NCBI GenBank assembly: GCA_045612565.1
Contig: JAZKZG010000040.1
Coordinates: 1 to 56,090, forward strand
Reading direction: 5' to 3'
DNA from: Eubacteriales bacterium
GTDB lineage: Bacteria > Bacillota > Clostridia > Oscillospirales > QAKW01
Length of the DNA: 56,090 nucleotides
The stretch's first letter is position 1. Each line of letters opens with the position of its first letter. Below the pieces are notes generated by a model. It searched no databases. It was not told the DNA's origin and worked only from the letters and a program-made list of their open reading frames with translations. Made by a program: the position numbers and the translations under genes. Positions 3,575-17,986 of this stretch are shown piece after piece.

Positions 3575-3596
3575 AATAAGTTACCTCTTTTATAGA

Positions 3597-3655
3597 ATTT
3601 TACAATACAAAATATGAAAAATCAAGTTGATTAAAGGCGGCTGTTGTATTACAAT
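3597..3655. promoter_or_regulatory. Back-to-back sigma-A promoters for the GH78 gene (-) and the MBL hydrolase (+)
   Basis: Minus strand TTGATT-17-TAAAAT (3625->3597); plus strand TTGATT(3627)-17-TACAAT(3650). The two -35 boxes form the palindrome AATCAA-G-TTGATT. Confidence 0.65.
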
Positions 3656-3673
3656 AAAAAAGAGGTGACTCAA

Positions 3674-4393
3674 ATGAAAATTACTTTTTTGGGGACAAGC
3701 CACGGCGCACCTGAAAAATTAAGAAAATGCACATCAACTCTTATTGAGTCGGGTCAAAACCGATACCTTATTGATATCGGTACAAACCCGATTGAATATT
3801 TTGCCGATAACGGGATTGCGGTCGATAGTGTAAAAGCGGTTTTTATAACGCATATGCACGGCGACCACACCCACGGCCTCATGCCGTTTGTTGACCTTTG
3901 CGGATGGTATTATAAAAAATCAAATCCCAAGGTATTTGTGCCCGATAATGTTGACAGTGTAAAAAAGACAACAGCTGAGTGGCTTAGTTTAAATGGCAGT
4001 ACGCTTAGTGACAGAATTGAGTTTTTTGCTGTAAACGAGGGCGTTATTTTTGACGACGGCATAATAAAGGTGATCGCCTTTAAAACGATGCACTGCAACA
4101 ACTCATTTGCGTATCTTGTTGAATGTGAAAATAATCGTGTGCTGTTTACAGGTGACCTGAGTTCAAAGCCCGAAACTGATTTTCCGATTTCGGTATTTGA
4201 AAAACCGCTTGACCTTTGCGTTTGCGAGAGTGCGCATTTTGAATTTACAAAGCTTTTGTCGATATTTAAAGGTAAAAATGTAAAAAATCTTTATTTTAAT
4301 CATCTTTATCCGCCCAGAAAAAATTCGTTTAACGAGTTTAAAAATGAGGTACCCTCACAAATTGCAACTGATAATATGCAAATAGAATTATAA
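3674..4393 (+). CDS. MBL-fold metallo-hydrolase, RNase Z/arylsulfatase-like
   Basis: FLGTSHG, THMHGDHTHG (HxHxDH), FTGD, ESAH and NH motifs. Start moved to ATG 3674, which follows an AGAGGTGA SD. Confidence 0.8.
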   Translation: MKITFLGTSHGAPEKLRKCTSTLIESGQNRYLIDIGTNPIEYFADNGIAVDSVKAVFITHMHGDHTHGLMPFVDLCGWYYKKSNPKVFVPDNVDSVKKTTAEWLSLNGSTLSDRIEFFAVNEGVIFDDGIIKVIAFKTMHCNNSFAYLVECENNRVLFTGDLSSKPETDFPISVFEKPLDLCVCESAHFEFTKLLSIFKGKNVKNLYFNHLYPPRKNSFNEFKNEVPSQIATDNMQIEL

Positions 4394-4425
4394 AAAAATA
4401 CGACGGAATTTTCCGTCGTATTTTT
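4394..4425. terminator. Bidirectional intrinsic terminator
   Basis: AAAAATACGACGGAA-tt-TTCCGTCGTATTTTT between convergent genes. Confidence 0.85.
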
Positions 4426-4435
4426 ATTTGTGTTT

Positions 4436-5599
4436 TTATCCAATAACGCTTTTTCCTTTGAAAATGACTTGCTTTAGATTAAGTTCGTCATCCAAAAATA
4501 CAAGGTTTGCGTATTTACCCACTTCTATCGTGCCAACCTCGTTATCCACACCGATTGCTTTTGCGGGGGTTGTCGATGCCATACGAAAAAGTTCGGTTAC
4601 TGTTGCACCCGTGTGCGCTTTAAAGTTTTTAACAGCTCTGTCCATAGTGAGCCTTGAGCCTGAAAGTTGCCCAAGTTCGTTGTAGTTAAGGTCGACGGTA
4701 CTGCGGAAATGTTCGGCGGGGTAGTCGGCAGGGTCATAGTCACATATTGTGCAGTCGGTAACAATTGCAATTCTGTCGGGACCCGCAAACTGATAAACAA
4801 GCGTTAGATTTGCGGGTTTTACGTGTATTCCGTAACTGTCGGGGATGAGTTCATAAATCATTTCAGGGCAGATAAGACAGCCGACTGCAGCCGTTTCCTG
4901 TATAGTACCCGTGATGTTCCACGAATCGTTGCCCAGATGACAGCCCATCGCATCAAAAAGGTGTGTGGCAATACGTGCGCCCTTGTCAACGGCAGCACGT
5001 GTTTGCTTTGGCGATGCGTTTGTGTGCCCTACTGCAGCAGTGATTCCTTTTTCTTTTAAGAAATCACCGAATGAGCCGTCTTTATCCATTTCGGGAGCAT
5101 ACATCCACTGCGCAACCTTACCGCGTGTCGCCTCATATAGCGGCAGATACTCGTCGGGGTCGGGACCGACTCTTGCAAACTGGCTTGATTTTGCGCCGCG
5201 TTCGGGGTTTACAAACGGACCTTCAAAGCTGACTGCATAAACATTGGGCAGTAGCCCTTCGTCAATCATTCCCTGTACAATCTTTGTGTTTTTTAAAAGC
5301 GACTCTTTTGTCTGGCTGTAACTCATTGTTGCAACCATTGTGGTCGAGCCGTGTAAAAGGTGGTGATGTGCTGTCTTTTGGGGATCGATTTCCCATCTGT
5401 TTGCGCCGCCGTCGCCATGGATATGTATATCCACAAAACCCGGACCCACAAGCATTCCTTTTGCGTCAATTACTTCGTCAGCGTCTTTTATAGAAAGATT
5501 TTGACCCACAGCGCATATTTTATCATCTTTAATAAGAATTGTAGCGTCTTTTAAAATTTTATCATATAAAATTATGTTTGCGTTTATGATTGCTTTCAT
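4436..5599 (-). CDS. nagA: N-acetylglucosamine-6-phosphate deacetylase (NagA-like amidohydrolase)
   Basis: PGFVDIHIHG, EGPF, GHTNA, THLFDAM, VTD and PAKAIG...G.IEVGKYAN motifs. Start moved to ATG 5599 (GGAG SD). Confidence 0.8.
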   Translation of the reverse strand: MKAIINANIILYDKILKDATILIKDDKICAVGQNLSIKDADEVIDAKGMLVGPGFVDIHIHGDGGANRWEIDPQKTAHHHLLHGSTTMVATMSYSQTKESLLKNTKIVQGMIDEGLLPNVYAVSFEGPFVNPERGAKSSQFARVGPDPDEYLPLYEATRGKVAQWMYAPEMDKDGSFGDFLKEKGITAAVGHTNASPKQTRAAVDKGARIATHLFDAMGCHLGNDSWNITGTIQETAAVGCLICPEMIYELIPDSYGIHVKPANLTLVYQFAGPDRIAIVTDCTICDYDPADYPAEHFRSTVDLNYNELGQLSGSRLTMDRAVKNFKAHTGATVTELFRMASTTPAKAIGVDNEVGTIEVGKYANLVFLDDELNLKQVIFKGKSVIG

Positions 5600-5668: not shown

Positions 5669-6628
5669 ATGTGTACAGCGATTGCATTTAAAAATGATGG
5701 TTTTTATTTCGGACGCAACCTTGATTTATACTATCACTACAACGAGTCGGTGACGGTAACCCCACGTAACTTCAATTTTAAATTAAAAAACGGTAAAGAA
5801 ATCGTTTCTCACCTTGCAATAATTGGTATTGCAACGGTGTCGGAAGGCTTTCCGCTGTACTATGATGCTGTTAACGAGGCGGGGCTTTGTATGGCGGGTC
5901 TTAATTTTCCAAATAATGCAGTATATAACGATTTTGACAACGCCAAAAACAATATTGCGCCTTTTGAGTTGATTCCGTATATATTGTCAAGATGCAAAAA
6001 CGTTGATGATGCAATAAATGAACTTAAAAACATTAATTTGTGGGATATATCTTTTAACGAACAGTTTAAAAATACACCGCTTCACTGGATGCTTTGTGAC
6101 AAAGACCGCTGTGTAACAGTCGAGCCGATGCAACAACTCAAAATTTATGACAATCCCGTCGGTGTGCTTACAAACAACCCGCCGTTTGACTATCACCTTT
6201 ATAACCTTGCGAATTATATTAATGTTACATCCGACTACCCCAAAAACCGATTTTGTGAGGGCGTTGAAATAAAGCCTTACAGTCTTGGTATGGGGGGCAT
6301 AGGTCTGCCGGGCGATATGTCGAGCGGGTCGAGATTTGTACGTGCCGCGTTTGTAATGCAAAACTCGTTGTGTGATGACACATTGAGCCAGGCATTTCAT
6401 ATACTAAAATCGGTGGAACAACCGCGCGGTGTGACTTACACTAATGACGGAGAGTGCGAGTACACCCTGTACACAAGCGTGTGTGATGCAATCCGCGGTG
6501 TGTATTATTACACAACTTATAATAACAGCACTATTTCGGCTGTTTCGATGCACAACGAAAATCTTGACTCAGATCGCCTTGTGTCGTATCCTTTAAACAC
6601 GCAGCAAAATATATTTTATCACAATTAA
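5669..6628 (+). CDS. bsh: Choloylglycine hydrolase (bile salt hydrolase / penicillin V acylase family)
   Basis: N-terminal nucleophile Cys2 (MCTAI), FGRNLD, NE.GL.MAGLNFP, VLTNNPPF and GLPGD.SS.SRFVRA motifs; no signal peptide; AAGGAG SD. Confidence 0.85.
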   Translation: MCTAIAFKNDGFYFGRNLDLYYHYNESVTVTPRNFNFKLKNGKEIVSHLAIIGIATVSEGFPLYYDAVNEAGLCMAGLNFPNNAVYNDFDNAKNNIAPFELIPYILSRCKNVDDAINELKNINLWDISFNEQFKNTPLHWMLCDKDRCVTVEPMQQLKIYDNPVGVLTNNPPFDYHLYNLANYINVTSDYPKNRFCEGVEIKPYSLGMGGIGLPGDMSSGSRFVRAAFVMQNSLCDDTLSQAFHILKSVEQPRGVTYTNDGECEYTLYTSVCDAIRGVYYYTTYNNSTISAVSMHNENLDSDRLVSYPLNTQQNIFYHN

Positions 6629-7473
6629 ATTATATCGCGGTGTTTTGACTCGCGGTAGTGCGCGGGCGATATGCCCGTTTTTGCCTTGAAACAACTGCAA
6701 AAGTGGGTGGGACTGTTAAATCCTGTTAGTTCTGCTATGTCGGATATCGACAAATCGGATGTAGCAAGCATACGCTTTGCGGTGTGGGTGCGCGTATCGA
6801 TTATGTACTGGTGCACCGTTTTTCCGACGTGTTTTAAAAACATTCGGTTCAGGTGATATTCGTGATAGCCCGCGATATATGCAAGTTGTGCATTTGTTAT
6901 TTTTTTATCAATGTTTTGGTGTATAAACGAGCGCACTTTTTCAATTGTTTTAAGAGCGGGCGATTTTATAAGCGTTTCGCTTCTGTAGATGTCGATTAGC
7001 ACGTCTTTTAACAACGCACCGCTTTTTTCTAAAAAGAAGGGGGCTTTTGAGCCAAACTCTGTTATGATAGCCCTGATTTTTTCGCCAAGTTCATAGCCGT
7101 CCTCGATAAAAATATACGAGCCCAGCGCTCCGCCGTCGTCTATTGTGTCCTCGATTGTATATATGGGTGCTTTCCCTTTTGTTTTAAAAGGCGCAATTGG
7201 TTTTTTTATATCGTTGCGATTTTGAAAAAGGTCAAAGTTGAGGATATACAGTTCGCAACCGACTGCACCCGAAAAATTGTATGAACTACCGCCTATACAA
7301 TAAAACAGCGAACCCTCGCAAAGTTTTAGCGTTTTGCCGTCGATTTCAATTTGTGCATTGTTTGACACAAGATAAAAAATGCGCGAGTCAAAAACGTTGA
7401 CTGTGCCCGAACTTCCGCTATATGCTATTTTTTCGGCAAAGCGAATAAACGGATTGATGTCACTAACCTTCAT
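6625..7473 (-). CDS. AraC-family transcriptional regulator
   Basis: N-terminal cupin-like sensor domain; C-terminal double HTH (LAYIAGYHEYHLNRMF...ISDIAELTGFNSPTHFCSCFKAKTGISPAHYR). Confidence 0.92.
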   Translation of the reverse strand: MKVSDINPFIRFAEKIAYSGSSGTVNVFDSRIFYLVSNNAQIEIDGKTLKLCEGSLFYCIGGSSYNFSGAVGCELYILNFDLFQNRNDIKKPIAPFKTKGKAPIYTIEDTIDDGGALGSYIFIEDGYELGEKIRAIITEFGSKAPFFLEKSGALLKDVLIDIYRSETLIKSPALKTIEKVRSFIHQNIDKKITNAQLAYIAGYHEYHLNRMFLKHVGKTVHQYIIDTRTHTAKRMLATSDLSISDIAELTGFNSPTHFCSCFKAKTGISPAHYRESKHRDII

Positions 7474-7531: not shown

Positions 7532-7560
7532 TTGACTTTTAAATGCAAGAAATATATACT
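7532..7560 (+). promoter_or_regulatory. Sigma-A promoter for the beta-helix/GH28-like gene
   Basis: TTGACT-17-TATACT. Confidence 0.65.
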
Positions 7561-7592
7561 TGACTTAAATCATAAAGATGAGGCGAAAAATT

Positions 7593-8645
7593 GTGTTTTT
7601 ATCAAACGGATCTGAATATATTACACAACTTATAAATAATGCTGTTGCAAAAGGTGAGCATACTGCAACAGTTGTGGGCAATTATGAAATTGACACCGCT
7701 GTAAAAATTCCAAGTGACTTTACCTTGGTTTTGGACGGTTGTTATCTTAAAATGGCTGATGGGTGTTATTCAAATATGTTTGTAAACATATACCATGACA
7801 CCGAAATTGGAAAAACAACCGCGGGGACTGACCGAAATATTAAAATTATTGGAAAAAACAGAGCAGTGCTCGACGGTGGAAAATATAATGGATTGTCCGA
7901 AAAAACACAGCTTCAAAACGGTCTTCCACCAATATGGAAAAATAACCTTATTTTGTTCACAAATGTTGACGGCTTTGAAATATCGGGCATTGATTGCCAC
8001 AATCAGCGTTGGTGGGCACTTAATTTTGTTTATTGTGCAAACGGAAAACTGCACGATATAAACTTTAAGGCGTGCGATATTGCAGTTGACGAAGACGGTA
8101 ACGAATATCGCGGACTAAAGCGTGGAAAATATGCTGATATCCTTATAAAAAATGCTGACGGTATTGACTTGCGTCAGGGCTGTCACGATATTGAAATACA
8201 AAACATAAGTGGTTTTACCGAAGATGATTCAGTAGCGCTTACTGCTCTTGACGGCAGACTTGAAAAACAGTTTGCAGTAAGCGGTCTGCCGACTGATCTT
8301 TGTAATGTCACCATAAAAAATATTTCAACATCCGCCTTTTGTACAAATGTGCGTTTGCTTAATCAGGGTGATATAAAACTCCACGATATTCTGATTGACG
8401 GTGTGTATGATACTTCGGAGACTTCACAGCACATGGACCGCGGCATTTATGCTGTGCGTGTGGGTGATACACATCTTTATGGACCGCGTCACGCAACACG
8501 TGACGAAACGTATAATATCACTATTAAAAATGTGCGTTCCCGTGCAAAAATTGCTGCAGTAGGTCTTGCAGGAAATATGAAAAATCTTGTTATGCAAAAC
8601 ATACAGTGCTTTGACGGCGCATGTGAACTTGAAGATAACCGTTGA
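7593..8645 (+). CDS. Right-handed beta-helix glycoside hydrolase, GH28-like, no signal peptide
   Basis: NADGIDL and TEDDSVAL match the GH28 NTDG.D / GDD catalytic motifs, with repeated 'NITIKNV'-type beta-helix rungs. GTG 7593 follows GAGG; ATG 7578 is the alternative start. Confidence 0.7.
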   Translation: MFLSNGSEYITQLINNAVAKGEHTATVVGNYEIDTAVKIPSDFTLVLDGCYLKMADGCYSNMFVNIYHDTEIGKTTAGTDRNIKIIGKNRAVLDGGKYNGLSEKTQLQNGLPPIWKNNLILFTNVDGFEISGIDCHNQRWWALNFVYCANGKLHDINFKACDIAVDEDGNEYRGLKRGKYADILIKNADGIDLRQGCHDIEIQNISGFTEDDSVALTALDGRLEKQFAVSGLPTDLCNVTIKNISTSAFCTNVRLLNQGDIKLHDILIDGVYDTSETSQHMDRGIYAVRVGDTHLYGPRHATRDETYNITIKNVRSRAKIAAVGLAGNMKNLVMQNIQCFDGACELEDNR

Positions 8646-8652
8646 ATTTATT

Positions 8653-8679
8653 GACCTGTTATATAACAGGTCTTTTTTT
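8653..8679 (+). terminator. Intrinsic terminator after the beta-helix gene
   Basis: GACCTGTT-atat-AACAGGTC followed by T7. Confidence 0.85.
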
Positions 8680-8775
8680 GATGTTTGTTTTTTGCAATAA
8701 AATATTGATTTTATAACTTTATTATATTTGTTTTTTGTAATAAAATCAATAAAAAAGAAAAAGTTGGTGAGAGTT

Positions 8776-9708
8776 ATTAAATTTTGTGTAGGACTTGCAA
8801 AAAATGACGATAGATTTTTGGATTGCATAATTCATAACGCTTCGCATATACACGAGGTGTATTTTTCGTGGGGCGACTTTGCGAGTGGCAGAAGTGCGCA
8901 GACACACGATAGCGAACTTTTGCCATGGGAACTTATTGAAATACAAAAAAATGCACTCCAAAAACTGTCGCAAAACAGTATAGCGTTAAATCTTTTATTT
9001 AACGCAAACTGCTATGGCAAAGACAGCCAGTCACGTGTGTTTTTTGAAAAAATCGGAAACACCGCCGACTATATAAAACAAAATTTCGGACTTGCTTCTG
9101 TCACTACTGCATCGCCACTCATAGCAAAGTTTTTTAAAAACAACTTTGAGGATATCGAGGTGCGCGCGTCGGTCAATATGGAAATCGGCACAGTTGAAGG
9201 CATCGACTATCTATCTGACTATTTTGACAGTTTTTATATAAAGCGTGAACTCAACCGCGACAAGAATAAGGTGAAAGAACTTTCTGACTTTGCAAAATCA
9301 AAGGGTAAAAGTGTGTTTATACTTGCAAATAGCGGATGCCTTAACTATTGCTCAGCGCATAATTTCCACGATAATCTCGTGGCGCACGAGGCGGAGATTG
9401 CAAAGATGGATAACTGCTATAACTTTGGCGGTATCTGTCATGAGTTTTTAAAAAAACAAGAAAATATCTTTAAAATTATCGAACGCACCAATTTTGTGCG
9501 ACCCGAGGATATTGACGGATATGACGGACTCGTTACAGCCGCAAAACTCGCCACACGCATACACAAAAATCCCACCGAGGTTTTAAGCAGTTACATAAAT
9601 AAAAAATACAGCGGAGATATTCTGCGGTTGCTTGAACCCGCTCACAGCATATACCCATATGTTGTTGAAAACGGAAATCCGCTAATCATAAAAAAGATAG
9701 GAGAATAG
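8776..9708 (+). CDS. Peptidase U32-family (UbiU/TrhP/RlhA superfamily) Fe-S protein
   Basis: LNLLFNANC, RASVN, LANSGCLNYC...C, FVRPEDI and KLATR pattern of the U32 TIM barrel. Start uncertain: ATT 8776 behind GGTGA, or GTG 8767, TTG 8764 or TTG 8728. Confidence 0.7.
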   Translation: MKFCVGLAKNDDRFLDCIIHNASHIHEVYFSWGDFASGRSAQTHDSELLPWELIEIQKNALQKLSQNSIALNLLFNANCYGKDSQSRVFFEKIGNTADYIKQNFGLASVTTASPLIAKFFKNNFEDIEVRASVNMEIGTVEGIDYLSDYFDSFYIKRELNRDKNKVKELSDFAKSKGKSVFILANSGCLNYCSAHNFHDNLVAHEAEIAKMDNCYNFGGICHEFLKKQENIFKIIERTNFVRPEDIDGYDGLVTAAKLATRIHKNPTEVLSSYINKKYSGDILRLLEPAHSIYPYVVENGNPLIIKKIGE

Positions 9709-9710
9709 GT

Positions 9711-10793
9711 ATGATCAGTTCAAAACTCATAAAAGAAGTTGCCAAAAACGCGGGTGCTGACCTTTGCGGTATTGCACCGATGTCTCGTTTTTCGGGCGCA
9801 CCCGACGATATGAATCCTCAGTTTTTGTTTCCTGAGGCAAAAAGTTGCATCGGCTTTGTATTTAGAATTCCTCGCGGTGTTCAGCGCGGTATTGAAGAGG
9901 GTACACAGTTTTATCAGTATCCGTCGATGGCATACGGCGGTATAAACGAGATTTTTGCACCTGCTGTGCTCTATCAGGTGGGCAAGGTTATTGAAGACGA
10001 GGGTTATGAGGCATTTGTGTACCGTAATACAGGCGCACGTGGAAGTGTTTCGGATATGGATGGCTCTGAAGGTAACACACTCTCGCCTGAGGAACAGATT
10101 GAAATTAACGAAAATGCAAAGACGTCAACCGCTCATCACAGAAGTGTGCAGTTTACACGTCCCACACGCGATATAAATGTTGCACCCGATTTGCAGTTTC
10201 AGTTCAGAATTGCGGCGGTTGCGTGTGGTCTTGGCGAGATTGGCTGGAGCAAAATGCTCCTTACAAAAGAATTCGGACCGCTTCAGCGTGTTGCATTTAT
10301 TTTCACTGATGCCGAGTTTGACGAGTACGATAAAATTTATGACGGTGAGCCACTTTGCCGAAAGTGCGGTGCGTGTGTGCGCGAGTGTCCCGGCGGCTGT
10401 ATTCCCGCAATGAACTCGGGCAAGACTGTCACAATTGAGATGGAAGGCAAAAAAATCGAGTGGGGCGACATTGATATGTGGCGCTGTTACGCATTCTATA
10501 CTCACGCGGGCAGATACTACAATCCCTTTGTACCCAAGGAAGTGTGGGACAAAAACGAAGACGGTGCACTCGATCTTATGGAAGGTGTGACCGATGTTGC
10601 AAACGAACAGGAAATTATGAAGGTGTATACTGCTCTTCAAAAATATTTTCCGTCGTGGGTAGGCTATAATATGGCAAAGTGCGGTGGATGTATCCGCGCC
10701 TGTGTATCTATGCTTGAGAAAAAAGGCGGTTGTATGGAAGGCAGATTCAAAGAACCCTTACGCACCAAAAAAGCGTGGAGGCTTGACCGATAA
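9711..10793 (+). CDS. QueG/reductive-dehalogenase-like cobalamin + 2x[4Fe-4S] protein, paralog 1
   Basis: GADLCGIA..., P...FPEAKSCI, AAVACGLGEIG..MLLTKEFGP.QR...IFTD, CRKCGACVRECP, WRC and CGGCIRAC motifs; AGGAG SD. Confidence 0.8.
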   Translation: MISSKLIKEVAKNAGADLCGIAPMSRFSGAPDDMNPQFLFPEAKSCIGFVFRIPRGVQRGIEEGTQFYQYPSMAYGGINEIFAPAVLYQVGKVIEDEGYEAFVYRNTGARGSVSDMDGSEGNTLSPEEQIEINENAKTSTAHHRSVQFTRPTRDINVAPDLQFQFRIAAVACGLGEIGWSKMLLTKEFGPLQRVAFIFTDAEFDEYDKIYDGEPLCRKCGACVRECPGGCIPAMNSGKTVTIEMEGKKIEWGDIDMWRCYAFYTHAGRYYNPFVPKEVWDKNEDGALDLMEGVTDVANEQEIMKVYTALQKYFPSWVGYNMAKCGGCIRACVSMLEKKGGCMEGRFKEPLRTKKAWRLDR

Positions 10794-11119
10794 TGGAGAT
10801 TTTTGACTATACAGGTGATGATTTTAAAGCAGTTATGTCGTTTGAGGGCTGGAAGATAGGGCTACTTCGCTACAGTGACAGATTTGCAGATTTTAAAGTA
10901 AAAGAACGTCACCTTGAAACTGATGAGTGCTTTGTACTTTTGGAGGGAGAAGCCACTCTTTACGAAAACGATACCCCCTATACTATGCAAAAGTGCAAGG
11001 TGTACAACATAAAAAAAGGCGTGTGGCATCACATTGTTGTAAGCCCTGATGCCACGGTGCTTGTTGTTGAAAACAGCAATACCTCCAAAGATAACACAGA
11101 AAGGATAAGTGTTTTATGA
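10793..11119 (+). CDS. Small cupin-fold protein (ureidoglycolate-lyase-like)
   Basis: ERHLETDECFVLLEG ... KGVWHH ... VLVVEN metal-binding cupin motifs; TAATG overlap with the upstream stop; GGAGG SD. Confidence 0.75.
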   Translation: MEIFDYTGDDFKAVMSFEGWKIGLLRYSDRFADFKVKERHLETDECFVLLEGEATLYENDTPYTMQKCKVYNIKKGVWHHIVVSPDATVLVVENSNTSKDNTERISVL

Positions 11120-12006
11120 ACGCACAGGATATAAAGAGAATTGCGCGTGAGCTTGGCGCCACCGTTTGTAAAATCGGCAAGGTGTATGATGAGCCAAACC
11201 CTCAGCGCGACCCGAGAATGATTTTACCTAACGCAAAATGCATAATCGGTTTTGGTTTTCTGGTGCCAAAGGGTCTTTATATGACAATGGATCAAAATAC
11301 ACAGTACTATACATACACAACTCTCGGCGTAAAATATTTTGATGAGGAGTTTGCCGAGATATTTCTGCTAAAAATCGGCGGTATGATTGAGGATGAGGGG
11401 TATGACGCTTGTTTACAAAAGGCAATCCCCAACCTTCGTATAAAGGGTGACAAAACCACCAATCCCGAGGTGGTTGATACATACGAACTGGTTCACGCAG
11501 AAGCGGTTGAGGACGGCAAACCCGCCCCCGACGTTATAATCGACTTTGGCAAGGCGGCAAAGTCTTGCGGTCTTGGTGAAATGGGTCTTTCGGGCAAGAT
11601 TATAAATAAAGAATACGGTCCGTTTATGCGCTACTGCTTTATTATTACCGATATGCCGCTTGAGTGCGATGAGGAACTTTCGGAAAATATCTGCGACAAG
11701 TGTGGTAAGTGTATTACAGCCTGTCCCGGTAAAGCAATAAGCGAAACCGGACTTGATACCTGGCAGTGCAGTGTTTATTACAAAGGTGCACACAAGTCAA
11801 ATCCGTTTATTACCGATGACTTTTTAAAGGATAATCCCGAACGTGACGATATTTTAAACGGCAAAAAGCGTTTTGATGCCGAGTCGGCAAGAGCGATTTA
11901 TAAGGAACTTGACTTTTTACCCAACACGCAGTGGGGATATTCACCTTGTCTTTGTGGCAGAAAATGCGACGTTGCGTGTTATAAACATATAAAGGGGGAA
12001 GAATGA
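11116..12006 (+). CDS. QueG/reductive-dehalogenase-like cobalamin + 2x[4Fe-4S] protein, paralog 2
   Basis: LPNAKCII, AAKSCGLGEMG...YGPFMRYCFIITD, CDKCGKCITACP, WQC and CGRKCDVAC motifs; ATGA overlap with the cupin stop. Confidence 0.8.
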   Translation: MNAQDIKRIARELGATVCKIGKVYDEPNPQRDPRMILPNAKCIIGFGFLVPKGLYMTMDQNTQYYTYTTLGVKYFDEEFAEIFLLKIGGMIEDEGYDACLQKAIPNLRIKGDKTTNPEVVDTYELVHAEAVEDGKPAPDVIIDFGKAAKSCGLGEMGLSGKIINKEYGPFMRYCFIITDMPLECDEELSENICDKCGKCITACPGKAISETGLDTWQCSVYYKGAHKSNPFITDDFLKDNPERDDILNGKKRFDAESARAIYKELDFLPNTQWGYSPCLCGRKCDVACYKHIKGEE

Positions 12007-12007
12007 A

Positions 12008-12943
12008 ATGCAAAACAAAGTAATTGAAATTGCAAAAGCAAACGGCGCAGATATCGTCGGTTTTGCCCCCATATCGCGCTTTGATAAAAATGACCCCGTT
12101 TTAAAACTTATGCCAAATGCAAAAACGGTAATCGGTCTTGCATTCCGTATTCTTCGCGGAATTTACCGCGGTATTGAAGAGGGGAGCACCTATTATCAGT
12201 ACACCACAATGGCTGTCGAAAATATGGAAGAAACCATTATGCCGATGGCACAGCTTAAAGTGTCGATGATGCTTGAAGAAAACGGCTTTATTGCACTTCC
12301 TCAGCGCCGTCATCAGCAGATTATGGCTCAAAAAGACAGCACCAACCCCGAGGTTGCGTACGACGCAATCTATCGCAACAAGGGTGCCGAAACACAAATA
12401 GATTTTCTTGACTGCGCTGTAAAGTGCGGTCTTGGTGAAAAAGGCTTCAGTGGTGCGCTTTTAACAGACGAGTTCGGTCCTATGGTGAGATTCTGCTTTA
12501 TTATCACCGATGCGGAATTTGACGCAACCGATATAAAGGCACCGCATCTTTGCGATAACTGTGGCAAGTGTAAGGCGGCGTGTCCGGGCAAGGCAATCTC
12601 AGATAACGGCACGGTTGATCCGTGGCAGTGCGCGGTATACTACAACGGTGCTAACGGCACAAAAAACCCGTTTATGCCGCCCGATGCGTTTGCAAACTTT
12701 GACAACAGGCTCGAGATTATTGCGGGTGAAGCCAAGGTAACTCCCGAAACAGCAAAGAAAATTCTTGATAATATCTATTTCTATCCGCCCGCTCAACATG
12801 CGTACCAGTGCTCAATCTGCGGAAGAGCGTGTGATATGGCGTGTTACAGTCATCTTGAAGGGAAGGGTGTGCTTACCAAAAAATTCAAGACCCCTTTCAA
12901 AAAGCGCGACGACTGGAAATTTGATTTAGATTCTTTTGAATAA
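12008..12943 (+). CDS. QueG/reductive-dehalogenase-like cobalamin + 2x[4Fe-4S] protein, paralog 3
   Basis: GADIVGFA, MPNAKTVI, RGIEEG, AVKCGLGEKG...FGPMVRFCFIITD, CDNCGKCKAACP, WQC and CGRACDMAC motifs. Confidence 0.8.
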   Translation: MQNKVIEIAKANGADIVGFAPISRFDKNDPVLKLMPNAKTVIGLAFRILRGIYRGIEEGSTYYQYTTMAVENMEETIMPMAQLKVSMMLEENGFIALPQRRHQQIMAQKDSTNPEVAYDAIYRNKGAETQIDFLDCAVKCGLGEKGFSGALLTDEFGPMVRFCFIITDAEFDATDIKAPHLCDNCGKCKAACPGKAISDNGTVDPWQCAVYYNGANGTKNPFMPPDAFANFDNRLEIIAGEAKVTPETAKKILDNIYFYPPAQHAYQCSICGRACDMACYSHLEGKGVLTKKFKTPFKKRDDWKFDLDSFE

Positions 12944-12944
12944 T

Positions 12945-12977
12945 AAAAAAGGAATGGTTTTTACCATTCCTTTTTTT
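12945..12977. terminator. Bidirectional intrinsic terminator closing the U32/QueG-like operon
   Basis: AAAAAAGGAATGGT-tttt-ACCATTCCTTTTTTT. Confidence 0.9.
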
Positions 12978-13015
12978 CAGTCTCCCCAAAAAACCGTGGC
13001 TTTTGTGGGGTATGA

Positions 13016-13708
13016 TTAAATTATCTTATGTATTTTGCCCTTGCCGATGATGTTGCCGCTTGTATCGATAATTTTGAATTTACTGCCTACAAAAAGAAGT
13101 TCTTGTGGCAAAAATTCAATCCTTATTATCTTTGCGGCGATGGGTGTTATCTGCTCTTTTGTATTTTTTAAAAACATTATCGGCACAAGTCTGTCTTTAA
13201 ATCTTTCGAGAAATACCACATTATATGTGTTTGTGTCAAACTTCAGCGAGTGTATGTCATAATTGTGTATATCTTTTGCAATTTCTTCAAGGTCAACTAA
13301 TACGTTAGGTATAGGCTCAATTAATCTGTGCGTGTCTGCATCTACCTCAACGGCATTGCACTTTGAATTTTCCAGGTAACTTATTCCAAATACAAAAGCC
13401 GGCACAATAATCAGTACGCAAAATATAAATGGTATGATCAGCACTTTAAAACGTGCTGTCAGTAACCCCAGAACAAGCAGTATTGTAAACAGAATAATTA
13501 CGATTATAACCTCAAAAATCTTGAATCCGATATTCCTGTACGGCGCACGGATGGTATATGGCTTGTTGCAATCGTGGCATATTTCCCACATTTCTTCTTT
13601 ATTGATACGGCGTAAAAAGCTTTGGTTGTATTTGTGCAAGTGTATTGTGTTTTTGGTAAACGCATCAATAGACGGCTCACCACAGTTTGGACAACGATAA
13701 CGCTTCAT
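13016..13708 (-). CDS. Hypothetical membrane protein with N-terminal CxxC...CxxC zinc ribbon and two TM helices
   Basis: CPNC ... CHDC, two hydrophobic segments, soluble C-terminus; GGAG SD. Confidence 0.65.
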   Translation of the reverse strand: MKRYRCPNCGEPSIDAFTKNTIHLHKYNQSFLRRINKEEMWEICHDCNKPYTIRAPYRNIGFKIFEVIIVIILFTILLVLGLLTARFKVLIIPFIFCVLIIVPAFVFGISYLENSKCNAVEVDADTHRLIEPIPNVLVDLEEIAKDIHNYDIHSLKFDTNTYNVVFLERFKDRLVPIMFLKNTKEQITPIAAKIIRIEFLPQELLFVGSKFKIIDTSGNIIGKGKIHKII

Positions 13709-13771: not shown

Positions 13772-15145
13772 TCAATTAATATAATTCTTGTGGAATTTTG
13801 CAAACATAACCGAGGCTTCGGCTCGTGTGCCTGTGCCTCTTGGGTCAAATCTTGCTGCGCCTTTACCGTTTACTATATCTGCCTGTTGACAGGTATACAC
13901 TGCACTCTTTGCCCACTTGCTTATATTACCGTCGTCAACAAAACTCTCTTTATTTTCAACCTTTTTGAGAGTAATGCCCTTAAACTGCGCAAAATTAACA
14001 AGCATCAGACACATCTGTTCGCGGGTGACATTTGCATTTGGTGCAAATTCACCGTTTCCCATACCGTTTACAACATAGTTTTCACTCGCCCATTTTACTG
14101 CGGCTGAGTACCATTTTTTATCGGGTACGTCTTTAAACGATGTTGTTACGTTACGGTCGGTGGTATCAACGCCTGAAATATTTGCAAGTACCTGCACAAA
14201 CTGTGCGCGTGTGATGTTGTCGTTCGGTGAAAATGAGGTGTCGGTCGTGCCTGTGAATATACCGTGGGTATATGAATAATCAACATATTCTCTAAACCAC
14301 GAATTTTTAAAGACATCCGAAAATATTTTTGTAGTATCTGTGAGTACCTTTCTTAGTTCACCGCAAATATTACAGTTTTTGTCATATTTATCATCATACT
14401 GATGGTCGGGCATCCCTTCCGCCTCATAGACCCACAATGCGTTATCAAGTTCTCTTGCGTTTTGCAAAGCATAGTAATTTTTTTGGTCGGCTGTTGAACC
14501 GCTGTAGTAGACCGTTTCAACAAAAGAACTTTCAAATGCACCGCTTTCGATCGATTGTATATTTTGTGGCAAATAAATAACTTTGATGCCTTTACATCCG
14601 TAAAATGCCCTGTGAGCGATGTTGACCAGTGTGTCGGGTAGGTTTACTCTGGCAAGATTAATACAGTTTGAAAATGCGCGGTTAGGGATGGTGGTTATAC
14701 TGTCGGGTATTGTTATTGACGTAAGTGATACGCAAAGATTAAACACATAGTCACCAATACGCTCGACCGAATCGGGAATTTCAATCTGCTTTAGTGATGT
14801 GCAACTCGCAAATGCGCGGTTGCCTATTGATTTAACTCCGTCGGGGATAACGATTGATTTGAGTGCTTTGCAACCTGAAAAAGCAGAAACACCAAGCGCA
14901 GTAATCCGCTCATCCAGAACAACAGTTTCAATCTCTTCTTTGAACATATACCACGGTGAGCCGTCGTCTTCGCGGTCTTCCATCTGACCCTCACCGCTCA
15001 GGGTGAGCGTTTTTGTTTGGGTGTCATACACCCACGTCAGATTGTATCCGTACGTTCCGCTTGTGTCGCTGTACGCAAAAGCGACAGGAAAAACAGTGAA
15101 CATCAGCACCAGAGTGATTATAATTCCTGTAATTCGTTTTATCAT
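13772..15145 (-). CDS. Secreted BspA-type leucine-rich repeat protein with three C-terminal SLH domains
   Basis: Signal peptide (..FPVAFA), LKSIVIPDGVKSIGNRAFASC-type LRR_5 repeats, and SLH motifs (FSPNDNITRAQF, FAPNANVTREQ, FDPRGTGTRAEA). Confidence 0.9.
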   Translation of the reverse strand: MIKRITGIIITLVLMFTVFPVAFAYSDTSGTYGYNLTWVYDTQTKTLTLSGEGQMEDREDDGSPWYMFKEEIETVVLDERITALGVSAFSGCKALKSIVIPDGVKSIGNRAFASCTSLKQIEIPDSVERIGDYVFNLCVSLTSITIPDSITTIPNRAFSNCINLARVNLPDTLVNIAHRAFYGCKGIKVIYLPQNIQSIESGAFESSFVETVYYSGSTADQKNYYALQNARELDNALWVYEAEGMPDHQYDDKYDKNCNICGELRKVLTDTTKIFSDVFKNSWFREYVDYSYTHGIFTGTTDTSFSPNDNITRAQFVQVLANISGVDTTDRNVTTSFKDVPDKKWYSAAVKWASENYVVNGMGNGEFAPNANVTREQMCLMLVNFAQFKGITLKKVENKESFVDDGNISKWAKSAVYTCQQADIVNGKGAARFDPRGTGTRAEASVMFAKFHKNYIN

Positions 15146-15270: not shown

Positions 15271-16641
15271 GTGAAAACTAAAGAGGTTAATATGCTCAAA
15301 GGCTCGATATTCAGGGGCCTTGTTTCGATGACAATTCCGATAATGGTGATGAACGTACTGCAGTCGCTTTTCAGTATTATCGATATGACGGTTCTCGGCG
15401 TTATGGTAAACGACGATGCGGTTGGCGCGGTAGGTGCATCAAGTACACTGATTTCACTCACAACGGGACTGCTTATAGGTATCGCAACAGGCTCTACCGT
15501 TGTTGTTGCAAAGCATCTCGGTCGCCACGAGGAAATTGATACGGACAAAGCGGTCGGCACCTCAATTCTTTTTGCAGCCGTGAGCGGTGTTGCGCTTATG
15601 ATATTCGGACTTATTTTTTCAAAGACCTTTCTTGTGTGGACAAACTGCCACGAAAGTTTGCTTCCCGATGCGGTGCTTTATTTCAGAATATACTTTTGCG
15701 CGGTGCCGTTTATAATGCTCTATAATTTCAGTGCATCAATACTTCGTGCTGACGGTGATACTAGCAGACCAATGGTGTATCTCACAATCGCGGGTATTTT
15801 AAAAATTGTTTTAAACATCGTTTTTATAAGCGTTTTTGATATGACGGTGGAGGGCGTGGGTATTGCCACAATCATTTCAAATGCGGTTGCTGCCGGACTT
15901 ACTTTTTCGGTGCTTATTAGCGGTAAAGACCATGTTCATTTTAAATTTAAATATTTTAGATTTTATTCTCACGAACTCAAAGAAATTCTGTTTATAGGTG
16001 TGCCGACGGGACTTCAGAGTGCGCTCTATTCACTCGCCAACACGGTTATCACCGCAACGGTAAACAGCTTTGGTGCGGCGGCAACAAAGGGTATTTCTAT
16101 TGCAAATCAGTTTGACGGCGTTTTGTATAATGTTTCGGTGTCTCCCTCGTATGCAACGTTGTCATACGTATCCCAAAACATCTCTGTCGGCAACGTAAAA
16201 CGCGCCAAAGAAAGCATTTATAAATCAATAATCATAACGACGGTTCTGGGTGCCACACTCGGCGCACTTTCGGCAATATTCTCGCCTCAGTTGTCGTCGA
16301 TTATGTCGGTCGATCCCGAAGTTATCAAATTCTCTTGTCAGAAGATGGTGATTATTTCAAGCACCTATTTTATCTGCGGTATAAAAGAAGTTTTAGATTC
16401 TACCATGCGCGGATTCGGACGTCCCATTATCCCTACCGTCTGCACACTTGTGTATATGTGCCTTTTCAGATTTGTGTGGGTATATGTAATCTTCCCGCTT
16501 TGCCCCAATATGACCTTTTTGTACCTCGTATGGCCGGTAGGTTGGATTTTGACAATTGCTACGACATTGGTATTTTACTTCCCGACAGTGAAAAAATTAA
16601 ATAAAAAATATGCTCAAAAGGAGTTACAATATGAAACATAA
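15271..16641 (+). CDS. MATE-family efflux transporter
   Basis: About 12 TM helices; MKTKEVNMLKGSI N-terminus; ILRA.GD..RP, N.VF...F.M.VEGV.IAT and SQN..VGN..R motifs. GTG 15271 follows GAGGTG. Confidence 0.9.
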   Translation: MKTKEVNMLKGSIFRGLVSMTIPIMVMNVLQSLFSIIDMTVLGVMVNDDAVGAVGASSTLISLTTGLLIGIATGSTVVVAKHLGRHEEIDTDKAVGTSILFAAVSGVALMIFGLIFSKTFLVWTNCHESLLPDAVLYFRIYFCAVPFIMLYNFSASILRADGDTSRPMVYLTIAGILKIVLNIVFISVFDMTVEGVGIATIISNAVAAGLTFSVLISGKDHVHFKFKYFRFYSHELKEILFIGVPTGLQSALYSLANTVITATVNSFGAAATKGISIANQFDGVLYNVSVSPSYATLSYVSQNISVGNVKRAKESIYKSIIITTVLGATLGALSAIFSPQLSSIMSVDPEVIKFSCQKMVIISSTYFICGIKEVLDSTMRGFGRPIIPTVCTLVYMCLFRFVWVYVIFPLCPNMTFLYLVWPVGWILTIATTLVFYFPTVKKLNKKYAQKELQYET

Positions 16642-17986
16642 ACTTTTACCACGTTTTCCGCTTTCAAATCCACGCAGACTGTGGCAACAGGACAACTTTG
16701 TTCTGTCAAACTTCTGTCCCGGACCTCTCGGTCTTGAAAAAAACACACCCGAAGACGACAGAATTATGCGCCGAAGCGTTAAAACTTGCTACGATGCGGG
16801 CTTTAACCTTTTAGAACTCGGCTGGGCAAGTCCATCCGGTGCAAAGGCAGCTGTGCAGATGGCAGAACAACTCGGTATCGGAATAATTTATCAAAACCTT
16901 ATGCGCTATGGCGGTATGGGTCCCAAAAACATTTTTTGTAAAACAAACGACCTGCTCGGTTCAATGGATGAAATGCGCCGTTGGAAATCGGTTGTGGGTT
17001 ACTATATCTGGGACGAGCCAACAACAATCGAGCAGATGCAGGTTACACGCAAGATGATTGATATGTGTGAGCGCGAAAGACCGTCTGCTCTTCCCTTTAC
17101 TGTGGCAAACCCGAGCTATAACAGACGCTTTTACTGGAAAGACGGCAACTACTCAAAATATATCGACAACTTCCTCGATATAATCGACCCGCCCGTTATG
17201 TCGTTTGACTATTATCCTGTAGGTACAAAAGAGCACGACAAAGAGCGTCAGCTTGACGAGTCACTTATGTGGTGCGACCTTGAGTACGTGCGCCGCGCAT
17301 CAAAAAAACGTAACGTTCCGTTCTGGTTTTATTATCAGGGTGAGAATTTACATAAAGAGGAGTTTTATATCTTCCCGATGATAAGACTTATGATGCACTC
17401 AGCACTCCTTTACGGCGTAAAGGGTCTTCAGCAGTATACCGCCCAACATTGTGTTATTGACGAAAAGGGCGGTCACGGTGAGTTTTTTGAAGATATAAAG
17501 CAAATTCACAAAGAACTTGCAGAGCTTGGCAGAACACTTATGGCACTCGAATGTACTCACGTAATCCACGACGATGCACTGCTTCCCGATTGTCCGTATA
17601 TGGAAAATCTCCGCACACCTATGAGCGAAAGCAAACTGCTTACAGGCAAACTTCCGTATCGTACTTCAATTTCGGAACTTACCGACAGTTACGGCAACGA
17701 CTATCTTATGGTTGTTAACCGCGACTATCTTAATGCTAAGGATATTACTCTTGAATTTAAAGAGGATATGCGCGTATACGAGGTGAGCCGTGAGGACGGT
17801 GAGCAGAGAGTTATTTGCGATAGCACCCGCACACTTACACAAAACTTTATCGAGGGCGGAATGGCGCTTTATCGCATAGAGCCTGTGGCAAACGAGCCGT
17901 CAATTGTTGAATATTATCTTGAAAAAGACCTTATTCCAACAACCGAAATTGCACCCATCGAAGACCCGCCTTATCCGAGAGATTAA
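16631..17986 (+). CDS. Uncharacterised glycoside-hydrolase-like TIM-barrel protein
   Basis: AGFN, VVGYYIWDEP, MSFDYYP, PFWFYYQ and ALLYGVKG pattern, plus a C-terminal beta domain (YLMVVNRD). ATG 16631 follows AAGGAG and overlaps the MATE 3' end. Confidence 0.6.
   Translation: MKHKLLPRFPLSNPRRLWQQDNFVLSNFCPGPLGLEKNTPEDDRIMRRSVKTCYDAGFNLLELGWASPSGAKAAVQMAEQLGIGIIYQNLMRYGGMGPKNIFCKTNDLLGSMDEMRRWKSVVGYYIWDEPTTIEQMQVTRKMIDMCERERPSALPFTVANPSYNRRFYWKDGNYSKYIDNFLDIIDPPVMSFDYYPVGTKEHDKERQLDESLMWCDLEYVRRASKKRNVPFWFYYQGENLHKEEFYIFPMIRLMMHSALLYGVKGLQQYTAQHCVIDEKGGHGEFFEDIKQIHKELAELGRTLMALECTHVIHDDALLPDCPYMENLRTPMSESKLLTGKLPYRTSISELTDSYGNDYLMVVNRDYLNAKDITLEFKEDMRVYEVSREDGEQRVICDSTRTLTQNFIEGGMALYRIEPVANEPSIVEYYLEKDLIPTTEIAPIEDPPYPRD

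Follow-up and report, generated by a model that had tools for sequence, protein, structure and literature searches.

We analyzed a 56,090-nucleotide stretch of DNA (the window; contig JAZKZG010000040.1 of assembly GCA_045612565.1, Eubacteriales bacterium), in which five abutting open reading frames (ORFs) on the plus strand encode, in this order, a U32-like protein (gene A), an RdhA/QueG-superfamily protein (P1), a small cupin and two further RdhA/QueG-superfamily paralogs (P2 and P3). The U32-like gene, P1, P2 and P3 form a conserved core together with a divergent AraC-family regulator gene. In our reading, to which we assign a probability of about one half, these genes belong to an accessory, horizontally spread, AraC-controlled operon of gut Clostridia that would encode a multi-subunit iron-sulfur (Fe-S) reductase system, probably dependent on a cobamide, for a glycan-derived substrate. 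That the module is a real and functionally coupled unit is close to certain.

A conserved operon core

Gene A (8764–9708, plus strand) is followed on the same strand by P1 (9711–10793, 360 aa), the cupin gene (10793–11119, 108 aa), P2 (11116–12006, 296 aa) and P3 (12008–12943, 311 aa). An earlier note on this DNA, made from the sequence alone, had described five tightly coupled genes bounded by terminators, and direct reading confirms all four junctions: TAG-GT-ATG (gene A/P1), TAATG (P1/cupin gene), ATGA (cupin gene/P2) and TGA-A-ATG (P2/P3). Both flanking terminators are likewise present on the plus strand. A scan identified a terminator-like hairpin with an 8-pair stem, a 4-base loop and a T-run at 8653–8672, whereas the stem-loop with T-run 3′ of P3 (~12945–12978) was read directly from the sequence, its A/T-rich stem having escaped a scan rule of three G-C pairs. 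The start of gene A is ambiguous, with candidate starts at 8728, 8764 and 8776; the position 8776 proposed before aligns with the methionine of homologues, but the codon there is ATT, not a usual start, and in-frame TTG (8764) and GTG (8767) codons lie just 5′ of it.

To place the operon in other genomes, a one-genome-per-species collection was scanned, yielding at least 568 stretches that encode gene A relatives. The best 80 were used as genome loci, almost all of them from gut or rumen metagenome-assembled genomes (MAGs) of Clostridia of several families. Core genes were counted by tblastn in loci with at least 4.5 kb of downstream sequence (65 loci) or at least 1.5 kb of upstream sequence (68 loci); ORF lists contained antisense ORFs displacing real genes (clusters of 21 and 12 members). 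P1, P2 and P3 follow the U32-like gene in the same order and on the same strand in 61 of 65 loci, so the co-conservation that the earlier note had left to a survey holds for these four genes. The trio is incomplete in four loci, one with P1 only (L029) and three with none of P1–P3 (L042, L047 and L066). In 60 of 68 loci, the U32-like gene is preceded by a divergent AraC-family gene, whose counterpart in the window occupies 6625–7473 on the minus strand (HTH_18, E 2.7e-22; HTH_AraC, E 1.3e-17), and the encoded regulator is likely the substrate sensor of the system.

Relative to the window proteins, median identity is highest for P1 (87%, 65 loci), followed by P2 (77%), P3 (75%), the cupin (62%), gene A (61%) and the AraC regulator (34%). 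P1 is thus the slowest-evolving gene of the operon, with 158 of 360 residues invariant in 62 orthologues. P1, P2 and P3 form three monophyletic orthologue groups in a quick tree search (SH-aLRT 99–100), P2 and P3 being sisters; this search left the long branches C48_389, C48_302 and G032_single unplaced. Separate orthologue groups for the three paralogs indicate that the triplication is older than the spread of the operon.

The distribution of the operon is patchy. P1 is found (E 1e-40 or better) in 2 of 11 other species of the window's genus and in none of 49 further relatives, and P1 proteins 86–91% identical occur in MAGs labelled Lachnospiraceae, Christensenellaceae and Acutalibacteraceae. 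This pattern fits an accessory trait spread by gene transfer. A gene A relative (E 1e-15 or better) was detected in 8 of 400 sampled other genomes of the phylum. A protein collection clustered at 90% holds 3633 relatives of the U32-like gene (E 0.001 or better) and 2105 of P1, some of these clusters containing hundreds of member sequences, with source names of 'hypothetical protein' or 'ferredoxin' throughout. Three gut metagenome runs of DNA type contain 6–9% of the sampled words, with no RNA run listed, a result with no bearing on expression or habitat.

Three paralogs related to RdhA and QueG

P3 aligns with P2 at E 2.8e-62 and with segments of P1 at E values down to 5.6e-18 in a search of the genome, and pairwise identities among the three proteins are 32–38% with 61 invariant alignment columns, in agreement with the duplication and divergence suggested earlier. 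Private motifs and the cysteine ligand pattern listed at that time were all recovered, with RGIEEG in P1 and P3, TNPEV in P2 and P3, NPF in all three, and CxxCxxCxxxCP ... WxC ... Cx2-3CxxxC in each. Eight cluster cysteines (CxxCxxCxxxC ... C ... CxxCxxxC), corresponding to the two [4Fe-4S] motifs also present in RdhA, align across P1–P3; among 28 sequences, seven of them show no variation and the eighth very little, and they follow the order of the QueG cluster ligands as partially listed in PMC4646009. Nine cysteines are invariant across P1–P3. The ninth lies within the A-x-x-C-G-L-G-E core (P1 C172, P2 C151, P3 C140) and is invariant in the P family, at a position where aligned RdhA and QueG sequences carry alanine; this residue may serve as an additional ligand or as a catalytic thiol.

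Family searches place the P proteins near two known groups and within neither. In Pfam, P1–P3 match generic ferredoxin models only. The NCBIfam models for reductive dehalogenases (RDH, TIGR02486) and QueG (TIGR00276) match P1 (E 1.4e-8, 35.0 bits and E 5.3e-5, 22.4 bits, respectively), P2 (E 7e-14, 52.4 bits and E 4.7e-12, 45.5 bits) and P3 (E 7.6e-9, 35.9 bits and E 5.6e-9, 35.4 bits), all far below the curated cut-offs of 160 bits for RDH and 200 bits for QueG. P3 alone matches PDB entries 8q4h (E 1.5e-8), 4uqu (E 1.5e-7) and 5d08 (E 9.6e-7), the range extending to 2e-5, and a profile built from 28 family members reaches tetrachloroethene dehalogenase 8q4h (E 1.6e-18), QueG 5d08 (7.9e-15), PceA 4uqu (1.4e-13) and QueG 5d6s (3.5e-13). 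The label "QueG/RdhA-like" given earlier is therefore borne out by the profile, at scores below the cut-offs of either family. In the profile alignments, the matched region takes in the ferredoxin domain and the last part of the cofactor domain with its A-x-x-x-G-L-G-E ... F-G-P ... T-D core; an additional weak match to the RdhA/PceA proteins lies at an N-terminal G-A-D-x-V-G-x-A stretch.

Several hallmarks of the two groups are missing. None of P1, P2 and P3 contains the DYH motif or, in the first 40 residues, a twin-arginine motif, as had been noted before, but the reported absence of VDT was wrong, since P2 contains this tripeptide, judged to be a chance occurrence. No small membrane-protein gene lies within the operon, in line with the earlier remark that an rdhB anchor gene is lacking. 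QueG, which shares with the P proteins a cytoplasmic location without a Tat signal, carries a C-terminal HEAT tRNA-binding domain of ~120 residues (PMC5175355); P1–P3 lack such a domain because they end 8–35 residues after the last cluster cysteine (8 in P2). Compared with RdhA enzymes, including the catabolic NpRdhA (4ras), P proteins are shorter (~300–360 aa vs 460–700 aa) and have no Tat signal, anchor gene or reductase fusion. Given scores below both cut-offs and the absence of DYH, HEAT domain, Tat signal and anchor, P1–P3 are distant members of the RdhA/QueG superfamily, neither QueG proper nor RdhA proper.

The N-terminal and ferredoxin halves of these proteins are equally constrained, with median identities of 87 and 86% for P1, 78 and 76% for P2, and 74 and 76% for P3 (59–63 orthologues). 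Equal conservation of the two halves indicates a separate function for the N-terminal domain and shows that no paralog is decaying, which speaks against the decaying copies considered in the earlier note. The heteromer of paralogs suggested there gains support for one pair: P2 and P3 are fused into a single chain in locus L058 (11093–12931) and, with linkers of differing length, in five protein clusters (P0391–P0395, 572–657 aa). Such natural fusions imply that P2 and P3 work in contact and point to a P2/P3 heterodimer, as judged from sequence.

The U32-like partner protein

Gene A itself has no match in Pfam (E 0.1 or better), NCBIfam or PDB sequences. Its relation to U32 proteins emerges from its family: 22 of 54 aligned relatives match PF01136 (best E 6.5e-14), the family profile finds the U32 structure 5d88 (MK0906) at E 0.01, and the ESM Atlas model of the homologue P0065 (66% identical to gene A; pTM 0.88) superimposes on PF01136 clusters with a TM score of 0.84. 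On the basis of the relatives' Pfam matches, the profile and the homologue's predicted model, kinship to U32 at the level of the barrel fold is likely, and membership in PF01136 is marginal. The earlier assignment to the U32 family thus stands for the fold and not for recognition of gene A by Pfam.

Four cysteines are conserved in gene A (C79, C188, C192 and C221, numbered from 8776), which suggests a cluster site. Characterized U32 proteins such as UbiU/UbiV, TrhP and RlhA share the conserved cysteines in kind, but their spacing differs: in U32 oxidases and hydroxylases a CX6CX15CX3C motif is essential for activity (PMC11574389), whereas the cysteines of gene A are arranged as C-x108-C-x3-C-x28-C, and the pairing with an RdhA/QueG-like gene is a further difference. 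The proposal of a hydroxylase-like activity for gene A is weakened by this. Distant members of the gene A clade carry an additional C-terminal CX3CX2CX2C tail that is missing from the window's clade, and two canonical U32 genes are located elsewhere in the genome. In locus L078 (2766–5924), a 1052-aa ORF is U32-like over its first 300 residues and has no Pfam match over the remaining ~750; the contig is short, and either a fusion or a read-through error may explain this ORF.

The pairing of a U32-like gene with a P-like gene extends well beyond the gut operon. Two genomes of another family (L107 and L108) harbor an AraC gene, a U32-like gene (37–38% identical) and a single P-like gene (37–38% identical to P1). 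In metagenomes, the distant clade of U32-like proteins with cysteine tails has a co-directional P-like gene within 1.5 kb in 29 of 33 loci (those with at least 1.3 kb of flank on both sides); the P-like gene lies upstream of the U32-like gene in 28 of these 29, opposite to the order in the gut operon, and one to five P copies are found within 5 kb. Persistence of the pair over this distance and through an inversion of gene order argues for a common function. An older module of one U32-like and one P-like gene thus seems, on sequence grounds, to underlie the operon. In metagenome locus L126 (229–12839), the ORF list contains six P copies: four tandem P-like genes precede the U32-like gene and two more follow an AraC gene, with an SBP_bac_5 binding protein at the front. 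Six genomes (L100–L106) had distant U32 matches (22–26% identity) without a P-like neighbor; these were set aside as other U32 subfamilies.

A second locus was found in the window's own genome. On contig C48 (locus L008), an AraC-family gene (3844–4605, plus strand) is divergent from two RdhA/QueG-like paralogs on the minus strand, of 302 aa (2865–3773) and 389 aa (1751–2920). A MatE gene lies near these paralogs, as it does in the window.

The cupin gene is an optional rather than a core member, being present in 33 of 65 loci (tblastn), which revises its earlier description as part of the pathway. The protein matches Cupin_2 (PF07883) at E 1.5e-5 and 25.1 bits, just below the cut-off of 27.2, and the uncharacterized cupins 3d0j (E 4.3e-6) and 3d82 (E 2.3e-5) in the PDB. 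H40, E45 and H79 are invariant in 16 orthologues, and there is no classic HxH pair.

Gene neighborhood and regulation

Between the AraC gene and the operon, the window encodes a GH28-like (polygalacturonase-like) protein (7578–8645, plus strand), its gene having a terminator of its own (8653–8672); the assignment is supported by a Glyco_hydro_28 match (E 2.3e-6, 27.4 bits, cut-off 22.9) and by the NCBIfam polygalacturonase model PglB (E 6.7e-7, far below cut-off); a search of PDB sequences gave no match. Recurrent neighbors were identified by clustering over the 80 genome loci. A DUF5696 putative glycosidase is encoded in 29 of the 80; in the operon-adjacent subset (n = 27), its gene lies between core genes in 5 loci, directly 3′ of P3 in 14 and between AraC and gene A in 4. 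The cluster representative matches the α-N-acetylgalactosaminidase 5wzn (E 6e-15) and the 3,6-anhydro-D-galactosidase 5opq (E 2.5e-8) in the PDB, and a literature search retrieved no paper on DUF5696. Gfo/Idh/MocA oxidoreductases occur in 21 of 80 loci, their representative being nearest to DgpA, sugar 3-ketoreductases and GH109 enzymes. The glycosidase surroundings pointed out in the earlier note have therefore turned out to be a recurrent feature, extended by other sugar genes.

Less frequent partners include a radical SAM/SPASM protein (8 of 80 loci), whose gene is usually placed between gene A and P1 (L072, 1329–2324; L063, 9951–10877; 6 others). Its nearest NCBIfam models are TIGR04317 (E 1e-73) and TIGR04311, metalloenzyme maturases named 'tungsten cofactor oxidoreductase radical SAM maturase' and 'putative metalloenzyme maturase', both matched below their cut-offs; this hints at a maturase requirement in some hosts. 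A YgjV-type membrane protein (8 of 80), FAD_oxidored PF12831 (6 of 80) and ABC transporter parts (5–6 of 80) were also found. Among the neighbors in the metagenome loci are regulators of LacI and IclR type, SBP_bac_5 binding proteins, a sugar transporter of the MFS type, FAD_oxidored, sulfatases, CBM96, and hydrolases of GH5-like, GH78, MGH1-like and GHL type; in L169, the U32-like gene is immediately followed by GH78. For Dickeya, YgjV appears among the members of the KdgR regulon (PMC6127512). Together with the GH28-like gene, GH78 and GH127 genes in the window and the GH78 gene of L169, the YgjV neighbors offer a lead, and only a lead, towards pectin.

URO-D-like (uroporphyrinogen decarboxylase family) genes stand directly beside the U32-like gene in two loci (L188, 2–3702; L110, 3994–4884), the one in L188 in the usual P-like position and next to a sulfatase; as a hint at methyl-corrinoid chemistry they were discarded, two loci being too few.

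An Rfam search of the window and four further loci found no riboswitch at the operon, the only hit being a T-box in L064 away from it. The genome has one cobalamin riboswitch elsewhere and thus handles corrinoids.

Proposed function and alternatives

From these observations we propose a scheme in which a cytoplasmic glycosidase (GH28-like here, DUF5696 elsewhere) or a Gfo/Idh/MocA sugar dehydrogenase would release or prepare a small glycan-derived molecule. The clusters of the P proteins would relay low-potential electrons to a cofactor bound by the N-terminal domain, by homology most likely a cobamide, and the U32/P system would then carry out a reductive C–O step, e.g., a deoxygenation, a ring or ether opening or an O-dealkylation. 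The model for such a step is the epoxide-to-alkene reduction by QueG (PMC5175355, PMC4646009), a plausible one by analogy. In the gut lineage, the second partner of the two-gene module (P) would have been triplicated, yielding P1 as the likely catalytic subunit, for which it is the best candidate because it is the slowest-evolving, and a heterodimer of P2 and P3. Parts of this scheme differ in strength. A link of the module to sugars is probable, and a cobamide is a cofactor that the sequences lead us to favor slightly; reductive C–O cleavage, drawn from analogy, is a tentative choice of reaction type, at less than even odds. We infer the cobamide, physical contact between the U32-like and P proteins, a sugar-derived substrate, and the direction and type of the reaction. 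In its most specific form, the scheme describes a new cobamide/Fe-S complex of the U32-like barrel and the P proteins for O2-free reductive C–O cleavage on a glycan-derived sugar or cyclitol, including deoxygenation, anhydro or epoxide opening and O-methyl removal, with a radical SAM maturase of its own for some members; this version we hold to be possible, yet doubtful.

A number of observations weigh against a cobamide-dependent reductase for glycan-derived molecules. With respect to the substrate, the sugar link comes from neighborhood only, in genomes rich in sugar genes; each neighbor cluster was named from one representative; the GH28-like protein has no homologue in the other 80 loci, the glycosidase partner differing between loci; and L107 and L108 have no sugar gene directly adjoining the module, only a GH130 gene some genes away. 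With respect to the cofactor, neither a cobalamin riboswitch nor a corrinoid gene is present at the operon in the window and four loci, the RdhA/QueG matches are mostly confined to the ferredoxin part and the final strands of the N-terminal domain, and class III cobalamin enzymes have no cobalamin-binding motif (PMC4646009), so that the N-terminal domain of the P proteins may hold a flavin or no cofactor. The direction of the reaction, reductive or oxidative, was guessed by analogy. Finally, gene A is devoid of the CX6CX15CX3C motif, and the 7.4-kb contig C48 carries no U32-like gene or cupin gene next to its paralog pair; P proteins may hence work without a dedicated U32 partner.

The main rival to this reading, although unlikely, is that catalysis resides in gene A, which would be a U32-type hydroxylase or oxidase working without O2 on a sugar-derived or aromatic compound, with the P proteins serving as Fe-S electron partners without corrinoid chemistry. 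It would account for the U32 fold of gene A, for the two ferredoxin-type clusters in each P protein and for the conserved U32–P pairing, and characterized U32 enzymes are Fe-S hydroxylases with unknown electron partners (PMC11574389). The missing activity motif speaks against it, as does the much higher conservation of P1 than of gene A (87 vs 61% median identity). Moreover, N-terminal halves as conserved as the cluster halves would be needless in simple electron carriers, and the C48 paralog pair has no U32 gene on its contig.

Three further alternatives, namely dehalogenation, the processing of corrinoids and the modification of RNA, rank below catalysis by gene A. A role of the P proteins as cytoplasmic reductive dehalogenases, used for the detoxification or respiration of gut organohalides, is improbable: tetrachloroethene dehalogenases are indeed their best solved relatives and RDH TIGR02486 is the top NCBIfam match of P1 and P2, but scores of 35–52 bits fall far short of the 160-bit cut-off, a Tat signal and a membrane anchor gene are lacking, and the neighbors are sugar genes with sugar-type regulators. 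We also know of no counterpart among dehalogenase operons to the obligate U32-like partner, which counts against this explanation too. We give equally little credence to a role in processing or remodeling corrinoids, in which a CblC-like fold with a redox chain would perform dealkylation, decyanation or lower-ligand removal. The cobalamin-binding module of QueG and RdhA is structurally similar to the B12-processing protein CblC (PMC5175355, PMC4646009), and the genome senses cobalamin; the operon, however, has no cobalamin riboswitch in the window and four loci, recurrent neighbors include no genes of corrinoid transport or synthesis, and the regulators are of AraC, LacI and IclR type with glycosidase partners. 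Very improbable is an ordinary or spare epoxyqueuosine reductase among the paralogs with gene A as a TrhP/RlhA-type RNA hydroxylase: despite weak QueG matches and the absence of an above-cut-off QueG elsewhere in the genome (0 of 5 matches; assembly 86% complete), scores of 22–45 bits stand against a 200-bit cut-off, DYH is absent, there is no room for the ~120-residue HEAT domain (PMC5175355), the operon is of an inducible type with sugar genes and a patchy, transferred distribution, and two canonical U32 genes exist elsewhere in the genome.

Relation to known systems

The operon is built of known superfamilies, with a fair chance of new enzymology. A search of the literature over titles and the beginnings of abstracts, supplements lying outside it, retrieved no description of the operon, the U32-like clade or the QueG-like paralogs, consistent with the earlier statement that no characterized operon of this composition was known. 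The P proteins share with QueG the order of the eight cluster cysteines, and the profile matches it in the ferredoxin domain and the terminal part of the cofactor domain; they depart from QueG in their extra invariant cysteine, the three co-conserved paralogs, the U32-like partner and the sugar-gene neighborhoods. IspG-type Fe-S enzymes catalyze reductive dehydroxylations, in which two electrons are spent and oxygen is removed from the carbon skeleton. IspH is mentioned as a reductive dehydroxylation enzyme of the Fe-S type in PMC11574389, and IspG/IspH could serve as a working analogy for gene A, an analogy that implies no sequence relation.

To our knowledge, dehalogenation and epoxyqueuosine reduction are the only two characterized activities of class III cobalamin enzymes. 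Additional class III families, difficult to recognize, were predicted in the work on the QueG structure (PMC4646009), and the operon is a concrete and very common candidate for one of them. In addition, the poorly understood U32 family gains a new, fixed partner. The module resides in inducible sugar-utilization loci of organisms ranging from gut Clostridia to glycan degraders in the environment, and this placement suggests a step so far missing from anaerobic glycan catabolism; we know of no anaerobic enzyme in carbohydrate breakdown that cleaves C–O bonds of glycan-derived sugars reductively.

Further features of the window

A promoter-like site (TTGACT-17-TATACT, 7532–7560, plus strand) precedes the GH28-like gene and agrees with the consensus at 10 of 12 positions; it is a consensus match in a region with 22 such sites vs 17.1 expected from shuffles. 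The wider window contains GH78, GH127-like, amidohydrolase, bile-salt-hydrolase-family and MatE genes. Just past the AraC gene, a gene of the choloylglycine (bile salt) hydrolase family (5669–6628; CBAH, E 9.8e-92) is probably unrelated to the operon. On the opposite strand at the operon's end, a gene (13016–13708, minus strand) encodes a protein of 230 aa that has hydrophobic stretches and, at its N terminus, a CxxC pair resembling a zinc ribbon; next comes a gene (13772–15145, minus strand) for a BspA-type leucine-rich-repeat protein carrying three SLH domains. Further along, a 458-aa ORF without a Pfam match (16610–17986) shares 32 bases with the end of the MatE gene and lies just upstream of the GH127-like gene (18112–20172).

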